Origin: a virus
Length of the DNA stretch: 64,000 nucleotides
Direction: 5' to 3' (one strand)
Virus record (IMG/VR): IMGVR_UViG_3300046453_000063
Span: 32,001 to 96,000 of that record
Shown here piece after piece: positions 17,372 through 57,409 of this stretch. Position numbers and translations under genes: made by a program. Below the pieces are notes generated by a model. It did no database searches. It had not been told where the DNA came from and saw nothing but the letters and a program-made list of their open reading frames with translations. Each line of letters begins with the position of its first letter. Positions within the stretch are counted from its first letter, which is position 1.

Positions 17372-17615
17372 TGGTGGTTTAAAATAAACTCAATTTTATG
17401 AAGAAGAGGTGAATTGTATTGGAACGATTCTTTTTAAAAACAAATGAAATTACAAAAGAAACATATTTATTAGAAGTAGATGGAGATTTTTATGGTCATG
17501 ACATGCAGAACATGGTAATTGCTAAATTTTATAATCAAGATTATGCAAAAAGAGTATGCTTTTTATTAAATGAGGATTTGTGAGTTGTTAATAAAATATA
17601 GTGAGAGGTGATTTT

Positions 17616-18113
17616 ATGATTGAATTGAACAAGTCTCAAATCCTAGAAATTGTCATGGATCAATTAACGATTCTACACAATCAAACACCATCAAGCATTA
17701 AGGTGAATATTGATTGGCTAAAATTTCGATATGATAAATATAATTCTGAATGGCACTTTATTGTAAAAGATATTGATGAAGGCATTCTAAAATATGCCGT
17801 GCGTGATTACTATGGTTATCCATCGGTACGATATGTCACATATCAAAAACTTGGTGACTGTATTGCTAGAACGTTTCCTGAAATGGTTAGAGTTGAGTTT
17901 GATTTTAAAGTTAAGGATGATATTACATTGAAAACCACAATGGGCAATGCAGAAGTTATGGAGTTAATTGATATTGTGGCTAGAGTGTATCATGATGACA
18001 AGGCAGAAATTAAGCAGGATGAACTACGTGATCTGATTGATTTGTCATTAGTGATGGGTGATAAAGTATGGTTCGAGGAATTGACAGATACATATAAAAA
18101 CATTAATAAATAA
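17616..18113 (+). CDS. IDEAL-domain protein
   Basis: C-terminal LIDLSLVMGDKVWFEEL; GAGGTG RBS. Confidence 0.7.
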   Translation: MIELNKSQILEIVMDQLTILHNQTPSSIKVNIDWLKFRYDKYNSEWHFIVKDIDEGILKYAVRDYYGYPSVRYVTYQKLGDCIARTFPEMVRVEFDFKVKDDITLKTTMGNAEVMELIDIVARVYHDDKAEIKQDELRDLIDLSLVMGDKVWFEELTDTYKNINK

Positions 18114-18173
18114 ATATACGTAATTAAACGATACAATGAAAATCATAAATTTTATTAAGAAAATGGTGACTAT

Positions 18174-18380
18174 ATGAAAGTATTTTATTCTGACGACCAT
18201 GATGGACATTATCCTGTGGGTGTGTGCTCAATCATTATTGCAGAGAACGAAGTAGTTGCAAGAAATAAACTTAAGAATAAACTTATTGAACACGGTTTAA
18301 GTGCAGAAATAAGCTTTAATTTACATGAAATAAACACAGAAAAATCAGAAGCATACATAATTTTAGATGGTGATTATTAA
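18174..18380 (+). CDS. hypothetical protein (single-gene cassette)
   Basis: GHYPVG motif; lies between sites at 18134 and 18394. Confidence 0.65.
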   Translation: MKVFYSDDHDGHYPVGVCSIIIAENEVVARNKLKNKLIEHGLSAEISFNLHEINTEKSEAYIILDGDY

Positions 18381-18393
18381 GTAAATTACAATC

Positions 18394-18415
18394 AATCGAA
18401 ATCCAGATTTTATTA
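18394..18415. repeat. 8-6-8 palindromic site
   Basis: AATCGAAA-TCCAGA-TTTTATTA. Confidence 0.6.
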
Positions 18416-18439
18416 ATAAAATAAAAAGGAATGATACTA

Positions 18440-18808
18440 ATGTTTCAGTTAGAAGATATTAAAATTTATCACATAATGCACAATCAGTTTCAGGATGCTG
18501 TTGATCAAATTATTCAATTCTATAATGAAATTAATGATAGAGATGATGAGATCGAGAATATTAGGTCAGCCCATGACGGATTTTCAGTTGAAGTTTATCA
18601 ATGGGTGGGCGGAGGATATCAGGATAGTAACACGATAAATATCAGTTTTGATTTGCTCACGAACGAAGAATTATTTAACCATCTTGCACAACAAGCAGAT
18701 GACGCTAGAACAAAAAGAGAAAGGCTCAAAGAGGAAAGAGAGTATGAAAAGAAAAACAAACAAATCGAAGAAGCGATGAAGTTTCTTAAGGATAACGGAA
18801 AACTATGA
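18440..18808 (+). CDS. hypothetical protein (single-gene cassette)
   Basis: AAAGGA RBS; its TGA stop starts the next site. Confidence 0.7.
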   Translation: MFQLEDIKIYHIMHNQFQDAVDQIIQFYNEINDRDDEIENIRSAHDGFSVEVYQWVGGGYQDSNTINISFDLLTNEELFNHLAQQADDARTKRERLKEEREYEKKNKQIEEAMKFLKDNGKL

Positions 18809-18827
18809 TAAATCGTTAGTTTTATCA
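18806..18827. repeat. 8-6-8 palindromic site
   Basis: TGATAAAT-CGTTAG-TTTTATCA. Confidence 0.65.
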
Positions 18828-18846
18828 TGAAAAGGAGTGTTGATAA

Positions 18847-19002
18847 ATGTGTCATTGTAAATATTGTGATGAATCAGAAGAAGAGAACGGATTTTGGGGA
18901 GATGTTTATTTCTATGTGGAAGAGAATAAATGCGATAAAGAAACAGCTATGAAAGCCATAGAAACGATATACGAGGAATTTTGTAAAAGAACCATTTCAT
19001 GA
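18847..19002 (+). CDS. small hypothetical protein (single-gene cassette)
   Basis: AAGGAG RBS; MCHCKYC..., 51 aa; stop lies in the right arm of the next site. Confidence 0.6.
   Translation: MCHCKYCDESEEENGFWGDVYFYVEENKCDKETAMKAIETIYEEFCKRTIS
18981..19002. repeat. 8-6-8 palindromic site
   Basis: TTGTAAAA-GAACCA-TTTCATGA. Confidence 0.6.
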
Positions 19003-19010
19003 GGAATAAT

Positions 19011-19055
19011 ATTTAATGAATAAATATATACATATTGCAATATACATGATATAAT
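19011..19055 (+). promoter_or_regulatory. AT-rich repeat fused to an extended -10 promoter of parMR
   Basis: ATTTAATGAATAAATATATACA; TATACA-N17-TATAAT with TG. Confidence 0.75.
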
Positions 19056-19128
19056 CAACTTATAAGGTTTGTATGACAAGTACATCAAAATGATTTACTT
19101 TGCATTAAGCATATGAGGAGGTTATATC

Positions 19129-20088
19129 ATGTCTTCAATTGTAACACCTGAACTTAGTGTAGTCGATTTGGGATTTAGCTACACCAAGGCCAAGAAAGGT
19201 AGGACGATCTATCTTCAGCCCTCAATAACTGGTGAACCACAACCCATGTTTGAACAGAATATTAAATCCAATTATTTCTCATACAACGATGAACTGTTTA
19301 TTGGAGAATTGGCACAGCAGTTTAGCGATATCAAATACTTTTCACTTAAAGATAATAAGAGTGAAGCAATGACATCAGATGTTCTACTGAAAACTGCACT
19401 AGGGTATCTCAACAAAAGCAAACCCTTCAACATGATTACTGGATTGCCAGTCTTGTTCTACTTTAAACAAATGGCCGATATGGAGAAGTTATTGGACTCA
19501 CTATCAGAACAAAGTACATATAACATTAAAAAAGGGAACAGAGAAATCAATGATATTAAACTTAATATGAATAAATATAAGATATATCCGCAAGGATATG
19601 GAATTGCAATGAGTTTTCTTTTAGATAAACAGGGTAAGCTCATCAACACGTATGTGGCAAGAAAGAAGATACTCGTTATTGATCTGGGCTTTTACACTCT
19701 AAATTTATTGGGACTTGATAAATTAGACATTATGAAGGAATCGACTAGTTTACTGCTGGGGGTTGAAAAGGCATATAAATTGCTTAGAAAATACCTGATT
19801 GAACATGTAGGTAAATCACCATCAATTTATGAACTTGATCAGCACGTAAGATCAGGCTCATATGAAGGATATAATATCAAACCTTTAATCAGAAAAGCAT
19901 TCCAGGCATTAGCCATTCAAATTCAGAATGAAGTCGAAGGATTAAACATCAACTTTGATCATTACTTTATAGGCGGTGGTGCTGCTCATCATATCTATGA
20001 TCTACTTACTCTAAACAATAAGATGCTTTTTGGTCAATTGGCTCAGGTTGAAGGCTATGAGAATGTTGGGGTGAGATTGTGGGGGTAA
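19129..20088 (+). CDS. parM: ParM/StbA-family actin-like ATPase
   Basis: DLGFSYTK, TGLP, PQG, VIDLGFYT, IGGGA. Confidence 0.88.
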   Translation: MSSIVTPELSVVDLGFSYTKAKKGRTIYLQPSITGEPQPMFEQNIKSNYFSYNDELFIGELAQQFSDIKYFSLKDNKSEAMTSDVLLKTALGYLNKSKPFNMITGLPVLFYFKQMADMEKLLDSLSEQSTYNIKKGNREINDIKLNMNKYKIYPQGYGIAMSFLLDKQGKLINTYVARKKILVIDLGFYTLNLLGLDKLDIMKESTSLLLGVEKAYKLLRKYLIEHVGKSPSIYELDQHVRSGSYEGYNIKPLIRKAFQALAIQIQNEVEGLNINFDHYFIGGGAAHHIYDLLTLNNKMLFGQLAQVEGYENVGVRLWG

Positions 20089-20673: not shown

Positions 20674-21372
20674 ATTAAGGAAAAAGATACAAAAAAATGC
20701 TCGATTTGCGGTAGTGAAAACAGAGTGTTTTTCAACAAAAGAATTGAAAAACTATTGTGCGATAAGCACAGCAAGCAACTAAGCAGATATGGGGAAATAC
20801 AAGAGAGGAATAGTCGTGACCCAAACGAAATTGTTGACTGTGGAGAATATTTGGAAATCATTATGTATGATAGAAAATTTAACGAAACCAGTAGAGCGAA
20901 AATAGATAAAGAAGATGAATGTAAAATAAATAAATATAAGTGGCACCTTGATTCAGATGGATATGCACATAATGGCAATGGAAAAAGAGGTCACATTTTA
21001 ATGCAAAATTTAATAATGAGTCCCAGTGAAGGGGAAATTGTTGATCATAAAGAATGGGACAGATTAGACAACAGAAAAGAAAACCTAAGAATCACTGACT
21101 ATTCAGGAAATAGCGCAAACACAAGAATACATAGGAATAATAAAACTGGAGTCACTGGTGTAATGGTTCGCTCAGAGTATGGAACTTGGAGAGCATGTAT
21201 CACACACAAAGGAAGGGCGATAGAATTGGGATCTTATAAAACCAAAAAAGATGCCGTGAGAGCACGATTGACAGCAGAAATAAAATACTACCCAGACTTA
21301 CCTCCCCAAAGACATTTATTTGAAGAATATGGAATTAGTGTAGAAGAGGGAGGTGCTAGTGTAGATGTGTAA
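20674..21372 (+). CDS. HNH-AP2 homing endonuclease
   Basis: VDHKEWDRLDNRKENLR, NNKTGVTGV, WRACI...LGSY; frame open upstream to ATT 20674 after GGTGG. Confidence 0.85.
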   Translation: MKEKDTKKCSICGSENRVFFNKRIEKLLCDKHSKQLSRYGEIQERNSRDPNEIVDCGEYLEIIMYDRKFNETSRAKIDKEDECKINKYKWHLDSDGYAHNGNGKRGHILMQNLIMSPSEGEIVDHKEWDRLDNRKENLRITDYSGNSANTRIHRNNKTGVTGVMVRSEYGTWRACITHKGRAIELGSYKTKKDAVRARLTAEIKYYPDLPPQRHLFEEYGISVEEGGASVDV

Positions 21373-22792: not shown

Positions 22793-23918
22793 GGTTTAAC
22801 GTCCCTTCATACAGTAATGTATGTCGATCACCCTGTGAACGTCTAACAAACGGTGTGACTTTAAAAGTTGCTAACGGAGAAACCCTACTTCAATGGAAGG
22901 GGCAATTCCGTGCCAAGTTTCAATCTTTTATGCCAATTTGTAATATAGTCTCATCCAAGAAATGAGGCTAAAGCATTTTAAATGATAAATATTATGGATT
23001 TGTATATATAACTACAAATCACATTAACAACAAAAAATATATAGGAATACATACAAAATTTGATGATAACTATCTTGGTAGTGGGTTGCTTATTACTAGA
23101 GCCATCCAAAAATATGGAGCTGAGAATTTTTCAAGAGAAATTCTGTGCTATGCAGACTCATACGAAGAACTGGGGCAATTAGAAAGAGCATACATAAAGA
23201 AGTATAACGCAGCCATCAGCGATAACTTCTACAATATCCACGAAGGAGGCTACGGAGGAAATACTCAACTTGGATGGGATCGCACCAAGAAGGTAAAATT
23301 CTCTGAGAAAATGAGAGAAATAACACTTGGCAGTAAAAACGGACATTTTGGGAAAACTCATTCTGAAACCACAATAAACAAACTCAGAAATATCAGAATA
23401 GAATATTGGGAAAACATCGATCCAGTAACCAAAGAACATTTTAGAGAAAAAATGAAAGAAGTGGTAAGTGGAGAGAAAAATCCAAACTACGGAAATAAAT
23501 GGTCCGATGAACAAAAACTTAAATTAAGCAATCTGAAAATAACTTCTGAAATGCATGTGGGAATAAAAAATGGAATGTATGGTAAAAAGGGAACCGAGGC
23601 TTTAAACGGAAAAGCAATCTACATGTATAATACAAATTATGAATTTGTGCAGTGTTTCACTACTAGACAACTTGCTCTTGAGTTTCTTGGACTGAAAGGG
23701 CATGTTAAATTAGTTGAAGCTATAAAAACAGGAAGACTATATCACAATCATTATTGGCATAATGAAAAGATTGAAAAAGGTGTAGAGGCCATCGAAAACA
23801 CTAGCTTAAGCTAGGAAGTGAGTAGAGTAGGATAGGAGAATGGTTACTATCCGAAGTGCAGGGCATCCCCTACAGGATGATGATATGGTGCGCCCCATTT
23901 GTAAGAATGGAACAGGCG
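22793..23918 (+). mobile_element. group I intron in dnaE
   Basis: Removal restores PD|IDIDTE; exon ends in U pairing with IGS GUCC; intron ends in G; P3 CCCTGT/GCAGGG; Q GCAATTCCGTGCCAAG; R GTAGAGGCCA; S GATATGGT. Confidence 0.9.
22975..23814 (+). CDS. intron-encoded GIY-YIG endonuclease with NUMOD3 repeats
   Basis: YGFVYITTN...KKYIG upstream of the listed start; YLGSG, FYNI, GKTHSE, NPNYG; probable ATT start. Confidence 0.88.
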   Translation: MLNDKYYGFVYITTNHINNKKYIGIHTKFDDNYLGSGLLITRAIQKYGAENFSREILCYADSYEELGQLERAYIKKYNAAISDNFYNIHEGGYGGNTQLGWDRTKKVKFSEKMREITLGSKNGHFGKTHSETTINKLRNIRIEYWENIDPVTKEHFREKMKEVVSGEKNPNYGNKWSDEQKLKLSNLKITSEMHVGIKNGMYGKKGTEALNGKAIYMYNTNYEFVQCFTTRQLALEFLGLKGHVKLVEAIKTGRLYHNHYWHNEKIEKGVEAIENTSLS

Positions 23919-26444
23919 ATTGATATTGACACAGAGGCCGCAAAAAGAGATCAGATATTCAGACAATTGAAACAATATTTTGGTGAAGAGCGAGTATTGC
24001 AAGTATGTACTTTTGGAACTGAAGCATCTAAATCTGCTGTTCAAAGCGCAGCTCGTGGTCTTGGAATTGATAATGATGTAGCAATGTATGTTTCAGGACT
24101 AGTTCCATTTGAACGAGGAAGCAACTGGACGCTTTCAGATTGTGTAAATGGAAATGAAGAGAAAGAAAGAAAGCCAGTACAAGAGTTTATCACTGAGATT
24201 AATAAACACGAACATTGGCTAAACGTTGCAATGAAAATCGAAGGACTTGTAAACAAACGCAGTATCCATGCCAGTGGTGTTATTGTCTTTAATGAAGAAT
24301 TCTATAAAACCAATGCAATGATGACTGCACCGAATGGAACACATGTAACGCAATTTAGTCTTGAGGATTGCGAAGCAGTATCAAATATGAAATTTGACCT
24401 TTTGACGATTGAAGGACTTGATAAAATTCGAGTCACATTAGATACATTACTTGCAGAAAACCTCATGGAGTGGCAAGGTACGATACGCAAAACCTACAAT
24501 AAGTATTTGCACCCTAACAAAATTGATATGGTTAGTCCCAAAGTATACGACTTAATTGGTTCGGATAGTATTACTGATTTATTTCAATTTTCTACAGAAA
24601 TAGGAATTCAAACAGTAAAAAGAACTAAGCCAGCAAACTTAATTGAACTTGCGTCTGCCAACTCACTTATGAGACTAATGGGAAGTGGACATGGAACTGA
24701 AACACCTATTGATAGTTTCATTCGTTTCAAAAACAATATTAGTGAATGGTACGGAGAACTTCAAAAACATCAACTTAATGAAGATGAAATTAAGATACTT
24801 GAAAAACATCTTTTAACATTAAACGGTGTTGCCGATACACAAGAATCTATCATGTTGTTGTCGATGGATGAAAAAGTTGCTGGATTTTCAATACAGGATG
24901 CCAATAAATTAAGAAAAATCATTGCCAAGAAAAAGGCAACTGAAATTGAAAAAATTAAGAAGACGTTTTACAAAAAAGGCTTAGAACTAGGCAATAGAAC
25001 TGAAATGCTTGATTACGTATGGAATGTGCAGATCGTAAGACAGCTAGGATATTCATTCTCAATCCTTCACACACTTGCATATTCAATTATTGCTCTACAA
25101 GAAGCAAGTCTGAACATAAACTATAATCCCATCTATTGGAGAACAGCATGTCTAACGGTCAATTCAGCATCCATAGATAATGAATCAGACGATGATGAAG
25201 AAGACACTAAATCAAAGTCGCAATCCACTAACTATGGTAAAATTGCTTCTGCAATTGGGAACATGCAGAGTCGTGGAGTAAAAGTTGGTTTGCCAAATAT
25301 CAATAAAGCTTACTTTGGATTCAAACCCGATATTATCGAAGATCAAATCATATTTGGATTAAAAGGTATTAATGGTATTGGTGATGATGTAGTGCAAAGT
25401 GTTATTCAGAATCGACCATATGCTTCATTTGATGATTTCCTGGTACGAATGTATGACACCTCAATCATCAAGAAAGCACAATTAATTCAACTAATTAAAG
25501 CAGGATGTTTCGAGACATTTGGTAATCGTATTTCTATAATGAAGACTTTCGTAAACAAACTCTACATACCAAAAGAAAAACTAAATCTTCAGAATCTAAA
25601 TGCTGTAATTGAATGTGGTCTAATCCCTCAAGAGATGCAACAGTATTCCAAACTCTTCAATTTCAGAAAGTATGTAATGAAGAAAATACATAGAAAAGTT
25701 GAGAAAGATAAGTATTATGCACTAGATAAGATTTCTACTCCATTTTATTATGAGAATTTCTCTGATCAAGGAATCAAAGAATACAGTGGCAATTTCCCTG
25801 TAATCAGCGAGAACGTATTTAAAAAAGAATACGATAAGAAGATGGATGGAATTAGAGAATGGTTGTCACTCCCTGAAACCTTAGAGCAATTTAATGCTAA
25901 ACAATATGAATTGGAATGGGAATCAGTTGCTGAAGGTACAGTTAGTAAATGGGAAATGGATTCACTCTCTTTCTATTATACTGAACATGAACTTGAACAT
26001 ATTGACTATACACGTTACGGAATCAGTAAATTTGGCGATCTGCCCGAAGAACCAATAGTAGCTTCAATGATGACGTTTAGAAATGGTAATAGTAGACCTA
26101 AGTTTAAACTTGATTTTATCATGGGAACCGTTTTAGACAAGGACAAGAACAAAAAGACCGTTGCCCTTCTAACAACTGATGGAGTGGTGACACTTAAATT
26201 TTCCGATGGAGAATTTGCACACTACAATAAACAAGTGTCTAAGCCTAAGCCTGATGGAGGAAAACAGATTGTAGAAAAGACTTGGTTTGCCAGAGGAAAT
26301 AAACTGGTGCTGTGTGGATATCGTAGGGGAGCGCAGTTTAAGCCGCATCGTTACAAAGATACCAATGTTAAACATACAACGATGCTCATAACTGCAATTG
26401 GCAAGGATGGCTCGATAAAAGTGGAAACAGAAAGAAAAAAATAA
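23919..26444 (+). CDS. dnaE: DNA polymerase III alpha, exon 2
   Basis: IDIDTE, HASGV, KFDLL, GYSFS, FGLKGINGIG. Confidence 0.92.
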   Translation: MDIDTEAAKRDQIFRQLKQYFGEERVLQVCTFGTEASKSAVQSAARGLGIDNDVAMYVSGLVPFERGSNWTLSDCVNGNEEKERKPVQEFITEINKHEHWLNVAMKIEGLVNKRSIHASGVIVFNEEFYKTNAMMTAPNGTHVTQFSLEDCEAVSNMKFDLLTIEGLDKIRVTLDTLLAENLMEWQGTIRKTYNKYLHPNKIDMVSPKVYDLIGSDSITDLFQFSTEIGIQTVKRTKPANLIELASANSLMRLMGSGHGTETPIDSFIRFKNNISEWYGELQKHQLNEDEIKILEKHLLTLNGVADTQESIMLLSMDEKVAGFSIQDANKLRKIIAKKKATEIEKIKKTFYKKGLELGNRTEMLDYVWNVQIVRQLGYSFSILHTLAYSIIALQEASLNINYNPIYWRTACLTVNSASIDNESDDDEEDTKSKSQSTNYGKIASAIGNMQSRGVKVGLPNINKAYFGFKPDIIEDQIIFGLKGINGIGDDVVQSVIQNRPYASFDDFLVRMYDTSIIKKAQLIQLIKAGCFETFGNRISIMKTFVNKLYIPKEKLNLQNLNAVIECGLIPQEMQQYSKLFNFRKYVMKKIHRKVEKDKYYALDKISTPFYYENFSDQGIKEYSGNFPVISENVFKKEYDKKMDGIREWLSLPETLEQFNAKQYELEWESVAEGTVSKWEMDSLSFYYTEHELEHIDYTRYGISKFGDLPEEPIVASMMTFRNGNSRPKFKLDFIMGTVLDKDKNKKTVALLTTDGVVTLKFSDGEFAHYNKQVSKPKPDGGKQIVEKTWFARGNKLVLCGYRRGAQFKPHRYKDTNVKHTTMLITAIGKDGSIKVETERKK

Positions 26445-29993: not shown

Positions 29994-30029
29994 AACCCCC
30001 AAATGGATTAATCTCCAGATGGGGGTTTG
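29994..30029. terminator. terminator at the early/late convergence
   Basis: AACCCCC...GGGGGTT stem with A-rich and T-rich flanks. Confidence 0.6.
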
Positions 30030-54077: not shown

Positions 54078-54142
54078 TCAAAAACCCGCATAAACATTGG
54101 ACTTTTTAAGCGTGATTTCCTCATGAAATGATAGATTTATCA
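54078..54142. repeat. composite site with inverted accessory core
   Basis: TCAAAAAC[CCGCATAAACATTGG]ACTTTTTAAG then TCATGAAA-TGATAG-ATTTATCA. Confidence 0.75.
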
Positions 54143-54432: not shown

Positions 54433-55515
54433 CTATCTTTTCTTTTTACCGAACGATCCAGACGAACTTCCTTCTGGTTGTTCCGACTCATCTTTATCAA
54501 ATGTTGCATTAACATCAAATATCTTATTCTTTTCTTCTTCAAAGTCACGCAAATCATAGATCTGAGTTGTAGAGATATCATTATGATGAGCTACATATTT
54601 AGAAACAAGATGCATAGGAACTCCAGATTCAAGCAGATATGTAATACAAGAATTCTTAAAAATATGTACATTGATTCGGCGTTCAAGAATATCGGAAAGG
54701 GTGTTCATACAAAAATCATTTGCCCATGCAGAAGACATTGCTTTGGGTTCATGATCATATTTTGTAGTAAATACATATTCGCTTTCGTATCCTCTTTCAT
54801 CAATCCACTTTTTCCAATGTTTCAGAACTTCTAATTTGATCATATATTCTAGTTTTTTGCCGTCAGTCGAAGCTCCTTTTCCCCTAACAACATGAGACAT
54901 TACATAGTTCTGTCCTTCAACAACTGAATATTCGAGTATTTCAGTTTTAAACTGAATAATCTCTGCTCGTCTAGCACCAACCAGGAAGGCCGTAGCAAGC
55001 CATGCCATACCCAACCAGTTCTTATCACCTTCTAGTACACTCATCATCATGTCGTATTCTTCTTTGGTGACTTTAACCTTTTCATAAACACGATTACGGG
55101 GGATAGAAGGGAGGCCACGAGTAAAGTTTCTGAACATTTTATAGTTAGAATCATCTTCTGCTACAACATTCTCAATATAGTTGCACAAACTTGACACTAC
55201 AGACTTTCGAACGCCGATGGCAGAAGAAGACATCTTTCTGTTATCACGTATATAACTAAGATACCTAATAAAGTCACGCTTTGTAATTTCATAAAACTTC
55301 TTGTTGTTCATTGAGTTGAACATGTACCATCCGAATTGTCTCAATACACTTTTGTACTGTGATTTCGATTGAATACTCAAGTCCTGGACCGAGACGAATT
55401 CTTCTGCAAGGTTGCGATAGTCATCATTCACCTTGAGCCACATTTCTTCAGTTACTTCCTCTAATTTCTTAGCGGGTTCTCGCAACGTATTCTGCTTATT
55501 TACTTTCTTGCTCAT
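54433..55515 (-). CDS. tyrosine recombinase family protein
   Basis: SAM-like core-binding domain; GARRAEI, RGKG, HIFK (HxxK), HHNDISTTQIY. Confidence 0.88.
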   Translation of the reverse strand: MSKKVNKQNTLREPAKKLEEVTEEMWLKVNDDYRNLAEEFVSVQDLSIQSKSQYKSVLRQFGWYMFNSMNNKKFYEITKRDFIRYLSYIRDNRKMSSSAIGVRKSVVSSLCNYIENVVAEDDSNYKMFRNFTRGLPSIPRNRVYEKVKVTKEEYDMMMSVLEGDKNWLGMAWLATAFLVGARRAEIIQFKTEILEYSVVEGQNYVMSHVVRGKGASTDGKKLEYMIKLEVLKHWKKWIDERGYESEYVFTTKYDHEPKAMSSAWANDFCMNTLSDILERRINVHIFKNSCITYLLESGVPMHLVSKYVAHHNDISTTQIYDLRDFEEEKNKIFDVNATFDKDESEQPEGSSSGSFGKKKR

Positions 55516-56965: not shown

Positions 56966-57409
56966 TTATTTTCGTGTATTAATCCCTAATCTTTTTAACC
57001 CTTTAACAATAGCATGTTCAACGCTGCCATCATTACGCAACTCGTCTCTGGTCGTTTCTACAAATGGACGGCCTTTGTGCGTATAGGGGAAAGACCAATC
57101 TTCGTTATAACCCACACCAGTTTCAACAATTACTGATACGTTTCGATTGTCGTCCATGCGGTGTGACTCAATGGAGACTGTATTATTGTCAATCATTTCA
57201 ACAATAATATTAGCGTCATCCATTAAGCCGCCATTTTCTCTTAGTCGCTTATATATTACAGGCTCTTCATATACATCATAGACCTCGGATTGAATATTTT
57301 CTTTCATCTTTGGCCTGACTAGCTTTTCACCAACATCTTCTTTGAGTGTTTTGGGCAATACTTGCTGGTTTATATATTTGGCTAAATCGTTGACATTTTT
57401 AAAGTTCAT
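56966..57409 (-). CDS. tail-completion (HK97 gp10-like) protein
   Basis: VYDVYEEP, YKR, RPFVETT; position in tail operon. Confidence 0.6.
   Translation of the reverse strand: MNFKNVNDLAKYINQQVLPKTLKEDVGEKLVRPKMKENIQSEVYDVYEEPVIYKRLRENGGLMDDANIIVEMIDNNTVSIESHRMDDNRNVSVIVETGVGYNEDWSFPYTHKGRPFVETTRDELRNDGSVEHAIVKGLKRLGINTRK

Follow-up and report, generated by a model that had tools for sequence, protein, structure and literature searches.

Dyads with position-specific, conserved centres at gene-swap boundaries in an SPbeta-like Paenibacillus phage

The DNA analysed here (the window, 64,000 nucleotides in full) comprises bases 32001–96000 of a complete 163,994 bp virus record with direct terminal repeats (GC 34%), and contains a stretch of three small open-reading frames (ORF1, ORF2 and ORF3) bounded by four copies of a short inverted-repeat element, which we refer to as the dyad. 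The relatives of the phage are SPbeta-like phages and Paenibacillus prophages; the source is a 164 kb SPbeta-like Paenibacillus phage, and the stretch represents three adjacent slots of its hyperplastic early region. Small co-directional genes run along the plus strand to around window position 30000 and are followed by structural genes on the minus strand, and the three ORFs lie between a gene for an IDEAL-domain protein and a conserved replication block made up of an actin-like partition protein (Alp), an HNH endonuclease gene and dnaE. The dyad recurs at gene junctions across the genome, each copy with its own 6 bp centre conserved between phages, and homology between relatives breaks off at it both in this stretch and genome-wide.

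For comparison we used two related complete phage records, G001 and G002, the latter a P. sophorae-type prophage, as well as two metagenomes (X2 and X3), two gene neighbourhoods (L031 and L032), three contigs (L044, L045 and L046) and relatives found through IMG/VR and genome scans. Megablast and blastn searches of the region against the phage collection gave no match. The dyad core was scored as ATRAAA-N6-TTTYAT, with other gap lengths (N2–N12) serving as controls.

The gene and site coordinates of the initial annotation were confirmed: three units, each consisting of a ribosome-binding site (RBS) and an ORF, lie between four dyad copies, which we name by their centres (cataaa, tccaga, cgttag and gaacca; Table 1). 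The units were also correctly described as lacking an evident promoter, as no plus-strand promoter scoring above 9/12 and no terminator was found between positions 17400 and 19000, and ORF1, ORF2 and ORF3 are read from an upstream early promoter. Two of the ORFs do take their stop codon from the downstream site: the TGA of ORF2 and that of ORF3 share bases with the 8 bp arms TGATAAAT and TTTCATGA, the ORF2 stop overlapping the left arm of the next dyad, and the final six codons and stop of ORF3 all lie inside the gaacca dyad. For ORF2 the start was placed at the ATG at 18440, which has an AAGGA RBS; an alternative ATG at 18431 has none.

Table 1 Features of the stretch and related features elsewhere in the window (aa, amino acids; RBS, ribosome-binding site; mismatches are to ATRAAA-N6-TTTYAT).
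Feature	Window position	Strand	Remarks
IDEAL-domain protein gene (165–170 aa), left anchor of the variable stretch	17616–18113	+	Pfam IDEAL, E 9e-7
Degenerate dyad cataaa, ATGAAA-N8-TTTTAT, exact arms, 8 bp spacer	18136–18155		Cognate G001:358
ORF1, 68 aa, RBS GGTGA	18174–18380	+	Family without assigned function
Dyad tccaga, TCGAAA tccaga TTTTAT, 2 mismatches	18396–18413		Alone indistinguishable from background
ORF2, 122 aa, RBS AAGGA	18440–18808	+	Sparse small family
Dyad cgttag, ATAAAT cgttag TTTTAT, 1 mismatch	18808–18825		16 nucleotides, ATAAATcgttagTTTT, shared with G001:955–972
ORF3, 51 aa, Cys-rich, RBS AAGGAG	18847–19002	+	phrog_23406, function not assigned
Dyad gaacca, GTAAAA gaacca TTTCAT, 1 mismatch	18983–19000		Identical at G001:1449, both flanks conserved
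Repeated early-promoter module, TTTAATGAATAAATATATACA ... TG-n-TATAAT, starting the next transcription unit (Alp gene)	19004–19058	+	Not a dyad component
Actin-like partition protein (Alp), conserved right anchor, followed by the dnaE module	19129–20088	+	Pfam ALP_N, phrog_691
YomM-like tyrosine-recombinase-fold protein, 360 aa, candidate dyad reader	54433–55515	-	PF00589; dyads at 54123 and 55733 flank a small block

Each of the three genes has a different distribution among relatives. The ORF1 protein is 100% identical in G001 (98% at the nucleotide level), is absent from G002 and from two Paenibacillus prophages, and has homologues of 71% and 65% identity in two other neighbourhoods, in one of which a one-mismatch dyad stands directly 3' of the stop codon. 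Word-indexed searches found no relative of ORF2; an exhaustive search recovered 6–7 distant ones (E ≤ 1e-3), the best at 37% identity, and genes of this family are bounded by dyads in four other contexts, namely L044, L045, L046 and a G001 paralogue, which is 28% identical, occupies another locus and is inserted directly after a conserved dyad. ORF3 is 98% identical in G001 and 83% identical in G002/P. sophorae, where the C-terminus diverges after the dyad; a first-pass scan of genome contigs with the P. sophorae ORF3 homologue as query gave no match.

Two of the four local sites are weak. Read in the N6 frame (18138–18155), the first site has the left arm GAAAAT with three mismatches, and its counterpart at G001:358 reads ATCAAA cataaa TTTTAT, with spacer, right arm and flank as in 18144–18160 of the window; G002 retains ATTCACAAATTTTATTA, a cacaaa half-site, after its own IDEAL-domain gene. 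The site at 18136 is probably what is left, as a scar or remnant, of a canonical one. The left arm of its N8 form (18136–18143), ATGAAAAT, is the start codon context of an extra gene, X, in G001 (174328–174340), and the present phage may represent a precise deletion of X between an arm-mimicking start codon and the true left dyad arm. The second weak site, at 18396, has its spacer also at G001:615–632 and an exact counterpart, ATAAAA tccaga TTTTAT, at G002:9088, directly 5' of the ORF3 homologue. We accept both weak sites because of these cognates at G001:358 and G002:9088. The 16 nucleotides ATAAATcgttagTTTT of the cgttag site sit between two minus-strand genes in G001, with both flanks different from those in this phage, and the right half of the gaacca site is retained in G002.

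Aligning the three genomes between their anchors shows how gene content changes around these sites. In this phage the order is IDEAL gene, cataaa, ORF1, tccaga, ORF2, cgttag, ORF3, gaacca, promoter and Alp. In G001 it is IDEAL gene, gene X, cataaa, ORF1, tccaga, a terminator with a 65-aa reverse gene, cgttag, an 86-aa reverse gene, ORF3, gaacca, promoter and Alp, such that the ORF2 slot (tccaga to cgttag) holds a terminator and a minus-strand gene instead, and a further reverse gene has been inserted to the right of cgttag. In G002, the IDEAL gene is followed by the cacaaa half-site, an 83-aa reverse gene homologous to the 86-aa gene of G001, a small ORF, the exact tccaga site, the ORF3 homologue (its C-terminus different after the gaacca right arm), other genes and Alp; ORF1 and ORF2 are absent and the tccaga site directly precedes ORF3. 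The anchors themselves are retained: the IDEAL gene shares 87.6% nucleotide identity with that of G001 and 39% amino-acid identity with that of G002/L035, Alp is present in both genomes, and two more Paenibacillus prophages keep Alp and dnaE with all three ORFs missing.

The edges of homology in this stretch are the edges of the sites. Homology to G001 begins at 18141, ends at 18420 and restarts at 18833, homology to the X2 metagenome begins at 18141/18144, and X2 and X3 share the G001-type junction past 18420. In the three genomes that share it, the tccaga core has two kinds of neighbour on its left and three on its right. From the shared tccaga and cgttag sites with their differing flanks we conclude that at least five replacement or insertion events end at two 18 bp sites within 1 kb. 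The G001 segment that replaces ORF2 opens with a GC-rich bidirectional terminator (L010, 641–660) and encodes small membrane-like proteins on the minus strand. One gene of the G001 replacement segments occupies another slot in G002 (L011, 3499–3750), so modules are also able to change slots. ORF1, ORF2 and ORF3 do not always travel together in a fixed order, as each of them has been gained, lost or replaced independently in G001, G002, L031 and L032, and the homologues of ORF1 and ORF2 found elsewhere are again flanked by dyads; both of the outcomes that the initial annotation had set against its proposal, an invariant gene trio and homologues without sites, are thus absent.

The dyad is a real and genome-wide element. 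Exact copies of the core occur 27 times at the N6 spacing vs. 0–3 times at the other spacings, and copies with one mismatch 47 times vs. 8–22, with two-mismatch copies at background level; two relatives possess 30 and 38 exact copies, their controls 0 and 1. Of the 74 sites with no more than one mismatch, 61 are intergenic or fall on the end of a gene, whereas N5 and N7 controls are mostly found deep inside genes. Nearly all of the junction dyads (56/61) lie between two plus-strand genes, usually 14–30 nucleotides 5' of the next start codon and with the left arm often providing the stop codon of the upstream gene, and the next RBS lies 1 to 12 nucleotides away. Dyads are concentrated in the early regions, where they occupy 55 of 228 junctions, vs. 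5 of 70 in the late region. They are specific to phages: in the 6.6 Mb genome of Paenibacillus dendrobii 40 of 47 copies fall in one 135 kb prophage, in P. illinoisensis 14 of 24 copies are in a prophage, and host chromosomes are essentially without the motif, which is why we rejected a host transcription-factor site as its identity.

Symmetry extends beyond the scored core to ca. 26 bp, roughly YYTS-ATRAAA-N6-TTTYAT-SARR. On an RNA-level reading, the dyad would be an intercistronic hairpin for processing, stability or termination. In favour of this, sites within operons are found between a stop codon and an RBS, the depositors of the SPbeta sequence labelled one of its copies a stem_loop, and the copy at 18806 (cgttag), the only one of the four local sites able to form a fair RNA hairpin, folds at -7.2 kcal/mol. 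However, the folds of the other three local sites are no better than those of shuffled sequence, terminators with a U-tract were not found, and a hairpin would leave the conserved loop identity at each position unexplained. Moreover, with every site read in the direction of its genes, no covariation is seen between the R and Y positions of the opposite arms (GT 27, AC 24, AT 23, GC 11), so that A-C combinations are as common as G-U. We therefore regard an RNA element as very unlikely, and the missing covariation and weak hairpins identify the dyad as a double-stranded DNA element, not an RNA hairpin, a terminator or a folded attC-like site. A target-site duplication or transposon, with the arms acting as terminal inverted repeats of each gene, was likewise rejected because the spacers on the two sides of a unit differ.

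The centres of the dyads behave as bar codes. Across the 61, 64 and 87 junction dyads of this phage and its two relatives, all 6 bp centres are distinct within each genome and none is palindromic. Even so, this phage shares 38 identical centres with G001 and 22 with G002, and G001 and G002 have 21 in common, compared with 1.9–2.7 expected by chance. The shared centres are perfectly collinear: the 38 pairs contain not a single order inversion, and 12 centres recur in one and the same order in all three genomes. This rule also holds for the four local centres, which keep their order in G001 and of which three are recognisable in G002. The proteins on both sides of shared centres are mostly unrelated, with alignment scores at noise and differing lengths, and the 10 nucleotides outside each arm are only ~40–50% identical. 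Best centre matches with the close relative are bimodal, either identical or random, and with the distant relative there are around nine surplus matches with a single change; centres thus evolve very slowly relative to their surroundings. At sites with one homologous flank, the centre goes with the left side 14 times and with the right side 16 times. The conserved spacer of each site and the fixed order across genomes mark the dyads as landmarks of genome position and not as components that a cassette carries along.

Mosaic breakpoints are enriched at dyads throughout the genome. When this phage was compared with G001, dyad junctions were broken in 20 cases and spanned by homology in 2, against 83 and 62 for dyad-free junctions (Fisher p = 0.002), and the reciprocal test from G001 gave 28/2 vs. 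75/62 (p = 4.5e-5). Restricting both tests to small, co-directional, closely spaced early genes left the effect in place (10/1 vs. 43/31, p = 0.046; 17/1 vs. 40/33, p = 0.002). The starts of high-scoring segment pairs cluster at site positions -5 to +3 and their ends fall exactly at +17. At the protein level a dyad is present at 42 of 320 boundaries with a non-conserved neighbour vs. 14 of 302 with a conserved one, an odds ratio of ~3 by our own arithmetic. Similarly, between SPbeta and phi3Ts 16% of homology ends lie within 30 nucleotides of a dyad vs. 2.2% of randomly placed ones (2000 trials, maximum 9.7%), and the identical blocks shared by these two phages themselves start or stop at dyads.

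We consider position-specific recombination joints to be the best explanation of the dyads, and give it about an even chance of being correct. Under this explanation, the arms common to all copies would be recognised by a phage protein, the recombination would occur within the dyad, and the 6 bp centre, unique to its position and conserved between phages, would matter because cognate sites must match. Cognate dyads, which with the same arms and centre offer 18–26 bp of identity, would recombine in co-infecting or resident relatives, and each exchange would swap whatever lies to one side, so that over time the genes between two joints would be replaced and the joints and their order would persist. 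ORF1, ORF2 and ORF3 would then be three replaceable single-gene modules, and the excision of 175–410 bp circles between non-cognate neighbouring sites would not be expected. Assembled contigs of the source sample contain no joints of this kind, although such contigs lose rare forms and would not have revealed circles.

A serious alternative, to which we assign an appreciable but minor share of probability, is that the dyad chiefly serves to bind protein in a regulatory or architectural role, such as that of an operator or roadblock for a phage DNA-binding protein on the early operons. Its overlap with mosaic boundaries would then result from its position at gene ends in variable regions, where general recombination occasionally uses it as a short homology, the dyad having no role dedicated to exchange. 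The 6-6-6 shape with its symmetric extension is that of an operator for a dimeric protein, and the preference for early regions suits such a role. A regulatory site leaves unexplained, however, why centres that are unique are nonetheless conserved and collinear amid unrelated flanking genes; in addition, the enrichment of breakpoints holds within matched small-gene junctions, and the variable distance to the RBS gives no fixed link to expression signals.

Several observations favour this regulatory alternative or otherwise weigh against recombination joints. The great majority of broken gene boundaries (87%) have no dyad at one mismatch or fewer, and dyads therefore account for only part of the mosaic. 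Most dyad-to-dyad intervals contain 2–6 genes; single-gene intervals number only 13 of 60 in this genome, and the three-unit run described here is the dense end of the distribution. The gene calls on which such counts are based come from our own heuristic. We painted three laboratory-evolved phi3Ts × SPbeta hybrids by parent-specific 21-mers, and their crossovers were located in identical blocks of 1.4–18 kb, within which they are not resolvable, or in dyad-free intervals of 29–87 bp. Ordinary homologous recombination therefore suffices where homology exists, with no need of dyads; the hybrids cannot settle whether dyad-specific exchange takes place, and argue mildly that dyads are not required for exchange. 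No recombination event was caught inside a dyad.

The element is not confined to Paenibacillus phages. SPbeta contains 14 exact dyads and 49 with at most one mismatch, vs. 11–14 for gap controls, and dyads are also present in phi3T, Goe11, Goe12 and SPR, as well as in Geobacillus E3 (24), a Staphylococcus SPbeta-like phage (10), Mammaliicoccus phi36 (18) and Bacillus Tsamsa (21). Scans of Lactococcus phiL47 and of SPO1, Mater, JL and vB_BboS-125 found none. A few centres recur across host genera, with CTTATC and TGTCAA at genome positions 26318 and 134804 matched among sites at 57272 and 22627 in Geobacillus E3 and 64016 in Mammaliicoccus phi36, and with TAATGG shared by SPbeta (12495), SPR (15855) and phi36 (124750). 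Such cross-genus matches exceed the ~0.2 expected per genome pair, a hint from sequence comparison that some of the bar codes may be very old.

All dyad-bearing phages encode a YomM-like protein, and the family is found in virulent large siphophages too. The genome of this phage encodes only two PF00589 proteins, at 86.5 kb and 115 kb of the genome and 35–65 kb from the stretch, and the YomM-like one is 61% identical to YomM of SPbeta. Of 13 phage genomes tested that encode YomM, 12 contain dyads; the four tested phages that lack it, the Bacillus phages SPO1, Mater, JL and vB_BboS-125, contain none. This co-occurrence makes YomM a reasonable and leading candidate for a protein that would recognise the dyad arms. 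On the other side, the co-occurrence extends across few independent lineages, and phiL47 has a 31%-identical YomM homologue yet no dyads. The literature yielded nothing relevant when searched for a description of the SPbeta dyad or of YomM function.

A sharper form of the joint explanation, which we count separately and think unlikely, is a dedicated spacer-reading site-specific system, a natural recombinase-mediated cassette exchange (RMCE) in which a YomM-like recombinase binds the arms and exchanges strands of DNA across the 6 bp centre, so that only cognate sites of two genomes would recombine. A 10-6-10 architecture is typical of tyrosine-recombinase core sites (loxP, FRT, dif), and the dyad shares it. 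Spacers that are all distinct, never palindromic and conserved across genomes would suit such a system, as would the near-equal segregation of centres with left and right flanks, which is expected from exchange at both spacer borders, and the conservation of YomM from a Paenibacillus phage to SPbeta together with its distribution. By alignment, members of the YomM family retain Xer-type residues (Arg, Lys, His, His and Tyr), but have an invariant Lys (H-x-F-K) where Xer enzymes (H-x-x-R) have the second catalytic Arg, a substitution found throughout the family. SPbeta also provides a precedent for a dead enzyme, as MrpR, its other recombinase-fold protein, is a DNA-binding repressor without catalysis (PMC10516654). 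The laboratory hybrids needed no dyad, and the co-occurrence is confounded by phylogeny. The broader proposal, that large Bacillota siphophages (SPbeta-like, Geobacillus E3 and Tsamsa-like) carry a natural cassette-exchange system of ca. 50–90 heterospecific dyads per genome with a YomM-like protein acting on the shared arms, appears to us equally doubtful. If it were true, the unique centre would limit exchange to the cognate site of the other phage, allowing in-register swaps of accessory genes with gene order left unscrambled.

The initial annotation had likened the stretch to an integron array, in which a gene and its site are excised as a small circle and re-inserted at a primary site by an integrase acting on folded single-stranded DNA sites. 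The layout stands: the units are promoterless, co-oriented single genes bounded by inverted repeats, with a content that varies between relatives. The mechanism and the membership do not. The sites show neither covariation nor a stable fold and span 18–26 bp vs. 57–141 bp for attC, they are positional and collinear and not tied to one side of the gene (14 vs. 16), and neighbouring centres differ. No intI, attI or Pc platform was found next to the array, and the promoter that serves it is an ordinary repeated early one. The one integron feature found here is thus the promoterless unit of variable content, and we regard membership of the integrons as largely refuted and an integron-like mechanism as scarcely credible.

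Downstream of the array, the promoter at 19027–19055 is the first good one and the best sigma-A match in the region. It belongs to a module present in eight copies, consisting of TTTAATRAATAAATATATACA followed by an extended -10 ca. 17 nucleotides on; besides the copy in Table 1, these lie at genome positions 226, 28429, 42892, 45921, 58855, 114470 and 131975. The module may be a counterpart of SPBRE, the MrpR operator of SPbeta. A tie between the dyad and this module or SPBRE was considered and rejected, as a dyad lies just 5' of the module in only two of the eight copies and the sequence of SPBRE is different.

Other insertions are seen close to the stretch. The dnaE gene is split by a ~1.1 kb insert (22794–23921) with a 242-aa ORF (23086–23814), which looks like an intron-type or homing-type insertion; the dnaE of G001 is a single ORF of 1327 aa. 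An HNH endonuclease gene (20851–21372) lies just 5' of the interrupted dnaE. At the junction before the IDEAL gene there is a perfect 9 bp inverted repeat, TTTTATTAA N18 TTAATAAAA (17561–17596), at which a G001-type contig from X2 has 231 additional letters.

Since Botstein's modular theory, there has reportedly been debate over whether module exchange in mosaic phages is guided by linkers or is random and filtered by selection, and to our knowledge few clear linkers have been found in phages. The dyad is a simple, countable element that marks gene-swap boundaries, its centres conserved and collinear where the intervening genes are unrelated, and its presence in two phages open to genetic work in Bacillus subtilis, SPbeta and phi3T, makes direct testing possible. 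If a protein reads the bar codes, the dyads would be a natural counterpart of engineered cassette exchange and a ready toolkit of orthogonal sites; if not, they would still offer a practical rule predicting the entry and exit points of accessory genes, many of which are likely to serve defence or counter-defence. What is newly added here is the local reconstruction, the collinear bar codes, the wider phage range and the co-occurrence with YomM.

Amongst known systems, the attC sites of integrons are imperfect inverted repeats of 57–141 bp that are recognised as folded single strands, with conserved structure, and that travel with the upstream gene. The likeness lies in promoterless single-gene units in one orientation with inverted-repeat sites between them and a content that varies between relatives; the dyads differ in that they are not folded attC-type sites, have no integrase platform and show no polarity with the upstream gene. 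In RMCE with heterospecific lox or FRT sites, common arms are combined with different centres and each site pairs with its cognate only. As with Botstein's linkers, the segment between two such sites is exchangeable between genomes with gene order kept, which is the resemblance to the dyads; RMCE, however, is an engineered tool, whereas the recombining enzyme for the dyads is only putative. We know of no natural phage system of this heterospecific-site kind.

The pdif (XerC/XerD) modules of Acinetobacter plasmids are bounded by arm-6 bp-arm sites and are small accessory modules shuffled between replicons; the sites, 28 bp in the Xer/dif type, have two different arms, for XerC and XerD, alternate in orientation and rely on host Xer proteins (PMC6449649, PMC5790767, PMC13141974). 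Many arm-6-arm copies delimit modules in both cases, and the mechanism of movement is unsettled for pdif too. In contrast, the dyad arms are symmetric, the host chromosome is without the motif, the modules sit in a phage and each centre is a bar code for its position. A B. subtilis dif pattern had no match in two Paenibacillus genomes. SPBRE is a 15 bp motif at ~10 SPbeta promoters (PMC10516654). Like the dyad it is a repeated intergenic element of SPbeta-like phages, and it is bound by a non-recombining protein of tyrosine-recombinase fold; the dyad differs in sequence and is located at ~60 gene junctions outside promoters.

The closest published analogue of the dyads is the PeSL motif of T4-type phages, which comprises early promoters and terminator stem-loops in interchangeable copies, and for which mini-circles were shown (PMC2839356, PMC4122927). 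Both are short conserved intergenic motifs in hyperplastic regions rich in small ORFan genes, insertions, deletions and replacements between related phages end at both, and recombination between motifs is proposed for both. The dyads, however, are neither promoters nor terminators, with no promoter consensus and weak hairpins, and have the form of a 6-N6-6 palindrome; and whereas PeSL copies are interchangeable, every dyad is distinguished by a conserved centre of its own and occupies a set genomic position.

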